Shown: positions 494 through 1,464 of the stretch, piece after piece | How the letters are laid out: the number at the start of each line of letters is the position of its first letter | How positions within the stretch are numbered: the first letter of the stretch is position 1 | IMG/VR virus record: IMGVR_UViG_2734482777_000021 | Source of the DNA: a virus | Lineage: Duplodnaviria > Heunggongvirae > Uroviricota > Caudoviricetes | Strand: one strand, 5' to 3' | Length of the DNA stretch: 12,036 bases | Notes under the pieces: model-generated | What the model was told of the DNA's origin: nothing | What the model saw: only the letters and a program-made list of their open reading frames with translations | The model's database searches: none | Position numbers and translations under genes: made by a program

Positions 494-700
494 ATGTTAA
501 ATCATACCACACACCCGCAAGGGCGGGACTCGCACAACCTGAATAAATATATCTGGCGTTTTATCGCCCTGAGCACGGCACAACCGCGCGTGATTACCAT
601 CGAGGCCACCAGCGAACAGGAAGCACGCCAGCAATCCCCGGCTGGCTGTGTGATGGTATTCGCCGCCCGTATTCGTCAGGGGGTGCGCCATGTGCAATAA
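494..700 (+). CDS. Hypothetical small protein (68 aa), first gene of the rightward early operon
   Basis: ATG at 494 is preceded by GAGG at 485..488. The stop overlaps the start of the next ORF (ATG 690). The long 229-aa ORF from 11 in the same frame runs antisense through the RHH gene and is rejected. An alternative start at 398 (AAGG SD) cannot be excluded. Confidence 0.35.
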   Translation: MLNHTTHPQGRDSHNLNKYIWRFIALSTAQPRVITIEATSEQEARQQSPAGCVMVFAARIRQGVRHVQ

Positions 701-935
701 CACCCGTCCGGACGCAGCCGCCGAAGCCATCAAAACGCTGATGCACGCGCTGATTGATATTTCTGTTATCGCAGACAAGGCGCATAAGCACGCCACCAGC
801 GAAACAGAATATGCCGGGGCTTTCGTTCCTCACTCACTGGCTCTTATGCAATTTAGTGCTGATATGGCGCTGAATGAGGCAAAAGCCATCCTGATTGCTG
901 ATTGTGAAAATGGCGGGGGCGATTATGCGAAATAA
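690..935 (+). CDS. Hypothetical protein (81 aa)
   Basis: ORF start overlaps the end of the upstream gene by 11 nt, suggesting translational coupling. No recognisable motif. Confidence 0.4.
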   Translation: MCNNTRPDAAAEAIKTLMHALIDISVIADKAHKHATSETEYAGAFVPHSLALMQFSADMALNEAKAILIADCENGGGDYAK

Positions 936-1143
936 ACATGATATTGAAGACCTGGCATTTGAAGCCCTGCACTCTGCGAAAAAAATCAGGGAAGTCGTCA
1001 ATATGTGGATGAACAGCCTTAGCACCGATAAATCCGATAGCAGAGAGGAAATTCTTATTTCTTTGTTGTTAGACCTGGCAAATACACAGGTTTCTCTGAC
1101 ATCTGATATTGAGCTCGCCGCTAAAAAGCTGCCTCCGGAGTAA
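925..1143 (+). CDS. Hypothetical protein (72 aa; start ambiguous, ORF opens at 895)
   Basis: ATG at 925 is preceded by a G-rich tract (GGCGGGGG) and overlaps the stop of the upstream ORF by 11 nt. No recognisable motif. Confidence 0.4.
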   Translation: MRNKHDIEDLAFEALHSAKKIREVVNMWMNSLSTDKSDSREEILISLLLDLANTQVSLTSDIELAAKKLPPE

Positions 1144-1149
1144 AAAAAC

Positions 1150-1464
1150 ATGAAAAAGAAAAATTCTGGCTTTACTGCCAGCGGCTCCGCTCGGCCTGAA
1201 ATCCGCCCCGGCGATATTTTCCAGGATAAATACGGCAGCACGATAACGATTAAAACCGTCGATGATTTTCGCGTGACCTATATCCGCGAAGGTTATGCGC
1301 ATCCCTGTGTGTCGTCGCATATGCGCTTTGAAAGGGAGTTCACCCTGGTAAGCAAAGCACCACCAGCAGAATTAAGCGACATCGACAGAATCATGCGCGT
1401 TACAGGAATGGAACGCATTAAGGCAGTACGTGAAATTATTCGTGAACGGGGAAAGGCAAAATGA
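1150..1464 (+). CDS. Hypothetical protein (104 aa), translationally coupled to the primase gene
   Basis: GGAG lies upstream of the ATG at 1150. Its stop overlaps the start of the replication gene in an ATGA motif (1461..1464). Confidence 0.5.
   Translation: MKKKNSGFTASGSARPEIRPGDIFQDKYGSTITIKTVDDFRVTYIREGYAHPCVSSHMRFEREFTLVSKAPPAELSDIDRIMRVTGMERIKAVREIIRERGKAK

Follow-up and report, generated by a model that had tools for sequence, protein, structure and literature searches.

Four small genes open the rightward early operon of an Escherichia capsid-forming satellite

Introduction

The genes located between alpA and the replicase of phage-inducible chromosomal islands (PICIs) of Gram-negative bacteria, including capsid-forming PICIs (cf-PICIs), are usually drawn as 'hypothetical'. 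Small genes co-transcribed upstream of a primase are also present in the left operon of satellite phage P4 (epsilon, orf151, and the alpha primase). Genes for Icd-like proteins are annotated in P4-like elements too, and in Enterobacter the majority of satellites of the P4-like, PICI, and cf-PICI types are reported to carry them. In the prototype cf-PICI EcCIEDL933, the packaging module and alpA have been characterised, and alpA is required for induction (bioRxiv 10.1101/2022.09.08.507074); the accessible part of that report does not mention the small genes between alpA and rep. Here we analyse four small open reading frames (ORFs) in a 12,036-nucleotide stretch of viral DNA (IMG/VR record IMGVR_UViG_2734482777_000021), the whole of which is referred to as the window. 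The window belongs to an Escherichia cf-PICI satellite, and the four ORFs, located at positions 494-1464, are the start of its rightward early operon, which continues into a primase/helicase gene.

Counterparts of parts of this operon have been studied in other settings. The immI operon of phage P1 (icd-ant1/ant2) starts with icd, which is recorded as an inhibitor of cell division that is required for the expression of ant. In the ECOR61 'prophage' system, growth is arrested upon the expression of the phage accessory gene orf24 (Silas et al., bioRxiv 10.1101/2023.04.06.535777). Transposon suppressors of the arrest hit a 366-nt Icd-like gene and the two small genes next to it, which measure 186 and 192 nt. 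The arrest depended on six linked genes, one of them for a primase, removal of the Icd-like gene abolished the effect, and the Icd-like protein was considered the likely effector; reconstitution of the system in a laboratory strain was weak. A P4-like satellite gave a similar result, with hits in the genes of AlpA, an Icd-like protein, and the primase. The DUF4222 protein RgdR from E. coli O157:H7 (CP-933C/OI-51) and its counterpart C1493 from a PICI of strain CFT073, when expressed alone, activate LEE1 and type III secretion (T3S) and repress motility. The DNA binding of RgdR is weak and non-specific, Arg20 of its RGD motif is important for the activation of T3S, and deletion of OI-51 results in reduced colonisation. 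The architecture described below ties both of these experimental literatures, that on RgdR as a virulence regulator of enterohaemorrhagic E. coli and that on the ECOR61 six-gene programmed-cell-death system, to satellites.

Results and discussion

Organization and coding status of the early operon

The operon comprises the following genes:

494-700, plus strand: ORF1, 68 amino acids, ATG start; Icd-like; the first gene of the operon
690-935, plus strand: ORF2, 81 amino acids, ATG start; cassette module A; predicted helical hairpin
925-1143, plus strand: ORF3, 72 amino acids, ATG start; cassette module D; predicted helical; always directly before DUF4222
1150-1464, plus strand: ORF4, 104 amino acids, ATG start; DUF4222/RgdR family; stop codon overlaps the primase start (ATGA)
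1461-3587, plus strand: DUF927 primase/helicase, 708 amino acids; PF06048, E 1.3e-46; phrog_1139, E 1.7e-174

ORF1 and ORF2 overlap by 11 nt (ATGTGCAATAA), as do ORF2 and ORF3 (ATGCGAAATAA), and ORF4 and the primase gene overlap by 4 nt (ATGA). A preliminary description of this DNA listed overlaps of 4-11 nt, which is correct for these three junctions; between ORF3 and ORF4 there is a 6-nt gap instead of an overlap. The frame of ORF1 is open from position 11 to 700, with ORF1 as its 3' part, and ORF3 is contained in an open frame that starts from TTG 895. A Shine-Dalgarno (SD)-like G-rich motif is positioned approximately 5-9 nt upstream of every start codon. The combination of overlap and SD motif recurs at 43 junctions in nine related elements, with overlaps of 4 nt (nine junctions), 8 nt (fourteen), and 11 nt (seven). 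This observed geometry fits translational coupling, so that the tight co-translation put forward in the preliminary description agrees with the spacing of the genes, from which the coupling itself is deduced.

The exact protein products are on record from 110 contigs for ORF1, 190 for ORF2, 375 for ORF3, and 237 for ORF4, from E. coli, E. albertii, and E. marmotae, and the same genes are annotated in relatives by the NCBI prokaryotic genome annotation pipeline (PGAP). Ratios of nonsynonymous to synonymous substitutions (dN/dS), calculated pairwise against related loci by the NG86 method, are 0.08-0.47 for ORF1 and 0.20-0.48 for ORF2. For ORF4, codon-aligned homologues with 43-73% amino acid identity and dS of 0.65-1.6 gave dN/dS of 0.21-0.67. 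ORF1, ORF2, and ORF4 are under purifying selection. The comparison of synonymous and nonsynonymous changes, which had been suggested as a check on the four reading frames, is uninformative for ORF3, the alleles of which are all at least 97% identical with nine variable sites, and the antisense frame gives the same counts.

The coding of ORF3 has support of other kinds. The gene has its own SD motif and ATG and is annotated consistently by gene callers. Three independent natural in-frame fusions join it to upstream modules, and the frame is open in both the A-D and the B-D fusions. In the related locus L003 (related loci are designated L001, L002, and so on), the junction before ORF3 is identical but the gene upstream of it is another one. 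The ORF3 family is narrow: a search of 1.84 billion proteins gave nine representatives at E <= 1e-3.

We regard the antisense ORFs of the region as spurious, since selection is seen on the plus-strand frames and family support is lacking save for one weak match. The match is that of a 99-residue antisense ORF (window 497-796, minus strand) to phrog_4106 (E 1.5e-4, function label unknown), and it is probably due to a mis-called antisense ORF within phrog_4106.

The small size of the ORFs, the lack of a curated family for two of them, and the immeasurable selection on ORF3 could mean that the primase gene has a non-coding leader in which frames are open by chance or genes were called in error. 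That explanation is effectively refuted already, and we assign it virtually no probability: three of the four ORFs are under purifying selection, family matches are strong, synteny extends across genera, homologues have experimental phenotypes, and the SD-start geometry is regular at the 43 junctions. The four ORFs are genuine, widely conserved protein-coding genes, which is a largely ordinary finding, and two of them are in known families. The preliminary description recognised no motif in any of the products, which was wrong for ORF1 (NF033153, 69.8 bits) and ORF4 (DUF4222, 66.7 bits). Its view of the ORFs as real, co-oriented, tightly packed, and part of one early operon with the primase is upheld.

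The element is a capsid-forming satellite

The window contains its own set of packaging and head genes, and Pfam matches were found for all eight products: HK97-type capsid protein, S78 prohead protease, portal, head-completion protein, connector, HNH protein, and the terminase subunits TerS and TerL. The window thus holds the capsid, protease, portal, head-tail connectors, HNH, TerS, and TerL genes of a cf-PICI together with a DUF927 primase/helicase module, and it is devoid of tail or lysis genes. The end of the window falls inside the TerL gene; the related element of UMNF18 (L004) ends shortly past TerL, adjoining thiM. At least 80% of the window is present, with int and alpA at its flank, in 27 complete E. 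coli genomes at approximately 95-97% identity. Among relatives with 89-97% coverage of the window, int and alpA are immediately upstream, so that in the element of the window both would fall outside the stretch. In close relatives, the end of the PF05930 AlpA gene lies exactly one base ahead of window position 1 (L004 4776-5000; L001 13776-14000).

The packaging gene set and the relatives flanked by int and alpA confirm the earlier assignment of the element to phage satellites. The preliminary description also noted that no AlpA-like helix-turn-helix was evident and that the induction logic might therefore differ from that of described elements. This is an effect of the window edge: AlpA is missing because the window was cut at that point. 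The same operon has AlpA ahead of it in elements from Citrobacter, Salmonella, Kosakonia, and Enterobacter, and the gene order int, AlpA, Icd-like, small genes, DUF4222, replicase is kept across five genera. The plan of int, alpA, rep, and own packaging and head genes is the one given for EcCIEDL933 (bioRxiv 10.1101/2022.09.08.507074), to which the window is likened by plan and not by sequence.

The genes of the operon belong to known families, and the architecture, which is common in Escherichia, recurs in Citrobacter, Salmonella, Kosakonia, and Enterobacter. It is conserved over at least five enterobacterial genera: an Icd-like gene is first, a DUF4222 gene coupled to the replicase is last, and a shuffled cassette lies in between.

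ORF2 and ORF3 are modules of a shuffled cassette

The region between the Icd-like and DUF4222 genes is a shuffled cassette of four recurring modules. The modules, and the G-tracts found at the junctions between them, are as follows:

Module A: ORF2-like; phrog_5146 or the N-terminal half of phrog_2512; ORF2 in the window
Module B: phrog_340
Module C: 'MRDDRF'; phrog_24341; the C-terminal half of phrog_2512
Module D: phrog_2196-like; includes ORF3; always directly before DUF4222
Junction A-C: fused with G7; separate with G8 or G9
Junction A-D: fused with G7; separate with GGCGGGGG (the window)
Junction B'-C: fused with G8; separate with G6
912-919, plus strand: interrupted G-tract GGCGGGGG; boundary of modules A and D and SD motif of ORF3; tract length decides between fused and separate products

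At the module junctions the G-tract doubles as the SD motif of the downstream module, and its length sets whether the two modules are fused or separate. ORF2 and ORF3 are separate in the window because the tract at their boundary is GGCGGGGG.

ORF2 matches phrog_5146 (E 7e-33) and the N-terminal half of phrog_2512 (E 1.2e-32, profile positions 1-76 only), a family of 154 positions. The PHROG 2512 proteins of E. coli satellites (approximately 154 residues, or 150-155 with a module A and a type-C module) are therefore matched by ORF2 only in their first half. ORF2 stops after the G-tract, and the module that follows is of type D (phrog_2196-like) and not of type C, to which ORF3 is unrelated; homology of module C ('MRDDRF') with either ORF3 or module D is unsupported. 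The match of ORF3 to phrog_2196 has an E-value of 1.4e-4 in hmmscan, and hhalign to a phrog_2196-type alignment gave a probability of 85% (E 6.7e-6, 38 columns). By this moderate profile similarity, ORF3 is classed as a divergent member of the phrog_2196-type module D. Module D genes are free-standing and at the same position in L002, L005, and L009. A search of the PDB sequences with the fused ORF2-ORF3 protein returned nothing significant.

The long form of the protein raises the question of whether ORF2 and ORF3 are the halves of one gene of approximately 150 codons, broken by a frameshift and now a pseudogene. In most relatives, module A is the N-terminal half of a protein of 150-156 residues. 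An ORF2-like domain forms the N-terminal half of a 130-160-residue protein in 101 of the 120 listed homologues, and ORF2 is 72-98% identical to the N-terminal halves of long-form homologues. In L001, the closest relative at the DNA level, one coding sequence of 453 nt (150 amino acids) takes the place of the two genes of the window, and the two loci differ by one base in the G-tract, which is GGGGGGG (G7) in L001 and GGCGGGGG in the window. The distribution of the two states argues the other way. The fused protein P0004 is found in one contig, and the other fused clusters have at most five members, compared with the 190 and 375 contigs of the split products. Of 5426 complete genomes, 31 carry the exact split junction of the window, and their annotation shows two genes there. 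We reject the pseudogene explanation for the window and consider it quite unlikely, because the separate state is common and because ORF3 has its own SD motif and ATG; the use of the same junction after a different upstream gene in L003, the free-standing module D genes, the purifying selection on ORF2, and the C interruption, which stabilises the G-tract, point in the same direction. In the subtype to which the window belongs, the common allele is the one with ORF2 and ORF3 separate.

The population frequency also rules out the split as a one-off frameshift or sequencing error. Programmed frameshifting from ORF2 into ORF3 is unlikely, as ORF3 is in the +1 frame and an interrupted G5 tract is not a known +1 site. 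The upstream stop codon is lost in two independent metagenome assemblies (L015 and L016, positions 340-380) through a deletion of 4 nt that turns AAATAAACATG into AAACATG, and a phrog_340-type module is thereby joined in-frame to ORF3.

ORF1 is a member of the Icd-like family

The match of ORF1 to the NCBIfam model of Icd-like proteins, NF033153, spans residues 19-62 (E 1.5e-19, cut-off 25 bits). Icd of phage P1 scores 52.6 bits against the same model, and BLASTP aligns it to ORF1 with 33% identity over 49 residues (pairwise E 1e-6). ORF1 also matches phrog_6196 (E 1.2e-45), and a search of the PDB sequences with ORF1 gave nothing significant. On the strength of this homology, ORF1 is assigned to the Icd-like family, whereas the inhibition of division is a prediction. 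When ORF1 was compared by tblastn to 50,697 phage records, among which P4 is expected and unconfirmed, only one cf-PICI-like record was found. The operons of Citrobacter, Salmonella, Kosakonia, and Enterobacter are also opened by an Icd-like gene, as read from the translated first genes without a profile search.

The resemblance to the P1 immI operon extends beyond the sequence of the protein. Both Icd and ORF1 have approximately 70 residues, match NF033153, and are encoded by the first gene of their operon. The stop codon of icd overlaps the start of the next gene, ant1, by 4 nt, and that of ORF1 likewise overlaps the start of ORF2. The operons differ in their downstream genes, which are cassette modules and a replicase in the window and an antirepressor in P1.

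Two variants of the Icd-like gene were observed in relatives. The 'Icd-like' gene of UMNF18 (L004 5890-6144) is a deletion chimera of the first 123 nt of ORF1 and of ORF2 from nucleotide 103 on, and it is followed by ORF3 through the same split junction as in the window. The 'long' Icd-like proteins of 121 residues, which are of the ECOR61 type (L002 5782-6147, L011 2783-3148, L017 3552-3917), contain two NF033153 stretches, and their N-terminal extension looks like a second, degenerate Icd-like repeat.

ORF4 is linked to the N-terminal domain of the replicase

ORF4 matches Pfam PF13973 (DUF4222) over residues 16-67 (E 1.3e-18, gathering threshold 27 bits). Its model has a Tudor/KOW-like beta-barrel followed by two C-terminal helices, and a search of the PDB sequences with ORF4 produced nothing significant. 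The protein shares 43% identity with RgdR (ECs1581) of O157:H7; like RgdR and C1493, it is a DUF4222 protein of approximately 100 residues encoded directly upstream of a satellite replication gene with a 4-nt overlap. The RGD motif of RgdR occupies residues 20-22 and is part of the sequence T-R-G-D, whereas ORF4 has R-P-G-D, that is, Pro20-Gly21-Asp22 after Arg19, and so has no arginine at RgdR position 20. The 'RPGD' sequence is the norm of the DUF4222 family, in which the proline at position 20 is nearly invariant. In addition, the C-terminal helical tail of ORF4 is longer and different from that of RgdR, and the replicase is of the AAA_25 type in O157 and of the DUF927 type in the window.

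The DUF4222 gene overlaps the start of the replicase gene by 4 nt in the window and in 13 of 13 relatives with called or annotated genes (ATGA where read). Three unrelated kinds of core occur among the replicases downstream (DUF927; D5_N/DUF5906/Pox_D5; AAA_25), and replicases of every kind have in common an N-terminal domain of approximately 100 residues, which is 44-83% identical among them and has no Pfam match. In the window, this domain corresponds to the first 100-115 or so residues of the primase (1461 to approximately 1800), and equivalents are present in L001, L002, L005, and L008-L011. DUF4222 and the N-terminal domain travel together, and this linkage suggests a functional partnership, which makes the domain a concrete candidate partner of DUF4222 proteins.

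The phenotypes of RgdR and C1493 when expressed alone, and the effect of the OI-51 deletion, could indicate that ORF4, as their clear homologue, is a host-directed regulator of virulence and motility, carried as cargo that has no role in the satellite cycle. We find this unlikely. The 4-nt overlap is kept in all 13 relatives whatever the replicase core, the gene is linked to the conserved N-terminal domain, DUF4222 genes are found in genera and strains that lack the enterocyte effacement locus (LEE), and ORF4 has the RPGD sequence of the family and lacks the Arg20 of RgdR.

A divergent ribbon-helix-helix gene and operator-like repeats at the putative promoter

The region upstream of ORF1 contains the following putative regulatory features:

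28-47, minus strand: terminator-like hairpin with T-run from a consensus scan; 8-bp stem with 7 G-C pairs; putative
184-360, minus strand: ribbon-helix-helix (RHH) gene, YlcI/YnfO-like; 58 amino acids from ATG 360; candidate repressor
338-420 (arms 338-363 and 395-420), no strand assigned: 26-nt inverted repeat, 81% complementary, bracketing the promoter; candidate operator
354-382, plus strand: sigma-70-type promoter-like site TTGACA-17-AATAAT; 11 of 12 consensus matches
455-493, plus strand: conserved 3' part of the leader; invariant 5-bp stem with variable 7-nt loop (469-485), abutting the SD motif GAGG (485-488)

The terminator-like hairpin is located between the alpA gene expected upstream, beyond the window, and the leftward RHH gene. 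The product of the RHH gene has weak matches to RHH_1, NikR, and YlcI/YnfO, all under the curated cut-offs. It aligns with proteins annotated by PGAP as YlcI/YnfO at the same position in seven relatives and is 100% identical in L001. The start codon of the RHH gene overlaps the -35 hexamer of the putative operon promoter, the TTGAC of which is aligned in five of the six loci compared; L010 has TTGAA. Transcription is predicted to start at approximately 389-391, which would give a leader of approximately 105 nt.

Relatives with different RHH alleles each have their own motif of 10-16 nt in three copies at the same place: GTGTAAGACAC in L003, GGTGTGTTTCA in L004 and L008, and ACTGGAATCCAGT in L010. 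The RHH and repeat sites are at 184-420 in the window, L003 5530-5612, L004 5712-5795, L008 2902-2994, and L010 3320-3401. The repeats co-vary with the beta-strand of the RHH protein, and L004 and L008 have both the motif and the beta-strand sequence in common. The RHH protein and the repeats look like an allele-specific repressor-operator pair of an immunity-type switch. A literature search did not find such an RHH/operator control layer described for PICIs, and the divergent RHH gene with its allele-specific operator repeats is possibly an undescribed one. The unusual control logic suspected in the preliminary description thus survives on other ground than the lack of an AlpA-like protein.

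The start codon at 494 is favoured over ATG 398 and ATG 11 because the approximately 40 nt before it are almost invariant in six loci, whereas the sequence farther upstream is divergent with insertions and deletions, and ATG 398 is not conserved. A start at ATG 398 (the PGAP call in L001) or at ATG 11 (a 229-residue ORF) was rejected because the upstream sequence is unconserved, holds the putative promoter and operators, and overlaps the RHH gene. The promoter at 354-382 would leave ATG 398 almost leaderless.

Structured RNAs in the leader of ORF1, among them an antisense RNA of the C4/P1 type, were also considered and rejected. An Rfam scan of positions 1-1600 at E <= 1 gave no relevant family, C4 RNA included, and the only match was a spurious one of mir-87 on the promoter palindrome. 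The overall fold of the leader is not significant (z = -0.57), and only the 5-bp stem is kept. The stem, CGATA/TATCG (469-485), is invariant and abuts the SD motif of ORF1; its loop alleles are GCGAAAG, GCAAGAT, GCAACAG, and GCAATAG.

Proposed function of the operon

We consider it likely that the four ORFs make up the part of the cf-PICI's rightward early (replication) operon that is nearest to the promoter, and that they act by the following mechanism. Transcription would probably start from the sigma-70 promoter at 354-382, which is bracketed by the inverted repeat and overlaps the start of the divergent RHH gene. The RHH protein probably keeps the operon off, and AlpA and the helper phage would turn it on. 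The genes would then be read as one translationally coupled string, as each start codon is within or just after the preceding gene, behind an SD-like motif. Judging from its homology, ORF1 would most likely halt host division or growth during satellite replication; alternatively, it could be the effector of growth arrest once a phage protein triggers the operon, as in ECOR61. ORF2 and ORF3 are independent modules (A and D) and would be the best candidates for phage-interaction or specificity factors. ORF4 would most likely be a small regulatory or accessory factor working with the replicase, to which it is linked, or with RNA polymerase. If this is correct, the early operon would act as the replication switch of the satellite and would also give rise to phenotypes of the host, for example growth arrest, regulation of virulence, and exclusion of phages.

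The layout of L002 provides the connection to ECOR61. In L002, an Icd-like gene of 366 nt is followed by genes of 186, 192, and 222 nt, DUF4222, and the primase, which is the same six-gene layout as that of ECOR61. From this layout, ECOR61 seems to represent a PICI-type satellite's early operon. L002 and the window have the Icd domain, module D, DUF4222, and the replicase N-terminal domain in common. By architecture, the window appears to match ECOR61, as the first gene is Icd-like, small genes overlap one another, and a DNA primase belongs to the unit; it differs from ECOR61 in that the ECOR61 Icd-like protein is the 121-residue form with two NF033153 stretches.

Several points weigh against the proposed mechanism. 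The equivalence of ECOR61 and L002 is drawn from gene sizes and order, not from sequence alignment, and the window has other cassette modules than ECOR61, where the two further suppressor genes correspond to phrog_3672 and phrog_1478, neither of which is present in the window. The PHROG families of ORF1 are labelled 'transcriptional repressor', in conflict with the Icd label, and the C4 antisense RNA and target sites that precede icd in P1 are not detectable in the leader of the window. The coding status of ORF3 is argued from its context, its fusions, and a moderate profile match, and the substitution pattern alone does not rule out the antisense ORF at 834-1241, which is without a family match. 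The AlphaFold2 model of the fused ORF2-ORF3 form is all-helical and unreliable, with a mean pLDDT of 55. The RgdR phenotypes may not transfer to ORF4 because proline replaces the important Arg20. The promoter at 354-382 is a consensus match only, repression by the RHH protein and the action of AlpA on the promoter are proposals, and the presence of alpA in the element is deduced from relatives, as the gene would lie beyond the window edge.

The ECOR61 results admit another interpretation, in which the operon is primarily an anti-phage module of abortive infection or superinfection exclusion, outside the replication programme of the satellite. The Icd-like protein would be the effector, the cassette proteins the sensors, and the primase a required partner. 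This would account for the dependence of the ECOR61 arrest on six linked genes including the primase, for the suppressors in the Icd-like and two small genes, and for the hits in AlpA, Icd-like, and primase genes of the P4-like satellite; the cassette is, moreover, as highly variable as arms-race genes would be. However, the operon encodes the only replicase of the element, at the usual site of the PICI replication module, and modules A and D of the window are not of the families hit in ECOR61. The prototype cf-PICI is reported not to block its helper phages (bioRxiv 10.1101/2022.09.08.507074), and the ECOR61 system was weak when reconstituted in a laboratory strain. We regard a primary defence function as possible but doubtful, and the two roles are not exclusive.

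A more speculative idea, which we think improbable as a whole, is that the early operon is a modular sensor-effector device. An allele-specific, immunity-like RHH/operator switch, which would be undescribed for Gram-negative PICIs, would gate the operon, and the Icd-like protein would be the effector of arrest. Modules A-D would be shufflable specificity factors for proteins of helper or competitor phages. The length of the slippage-prone G-tracts would toggle neighbouring modules between fused and separate forms in the manner of a contingency locus, by which the response would be diversified or switched, with the window in a 'locked' separate state given by GGCGGGGG. The RHH repressor with allele-specific operators and the fusion and splitting of modules at G-tracts are leads on how such operons are controlled and diversified.

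Neighbouring genes and related elements

[quoted passage not shown] For PerC homologues of other PICIs, either repression of LEE expression or no effect on it has been reported (PMC11773190). A gene of 168 codons (4876-5382, minus strand) is located in a pocket of low GC (0.36-0.41) that lies past the PerC region and ahead of the capsid gene. This gene, possibly an accessory or cargo one, matches phrog_5789 (E 1.4e-85, function label unknown) and is kept in L003 and L004. In an Enterobacter element, a gene for an OLD-like/AAA_15 ATPase (L020 9106-9315) is located 3' of the replication module and may be defence cargo.

The 16.5-kb record LR881103.1 (L013, 'Escherichia phage vB_KppS-Ant') was deposited as a phage from an induced prophage. 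Its layout is cf-PICI-like: int, a regulator, a 324-residue protein with a C-terminal Icd-like domain, two small genes, and the primase are followed by genes for the capsid, protease, portal, connectors, and terminase. L013 is probably a satellite rather than a phage.

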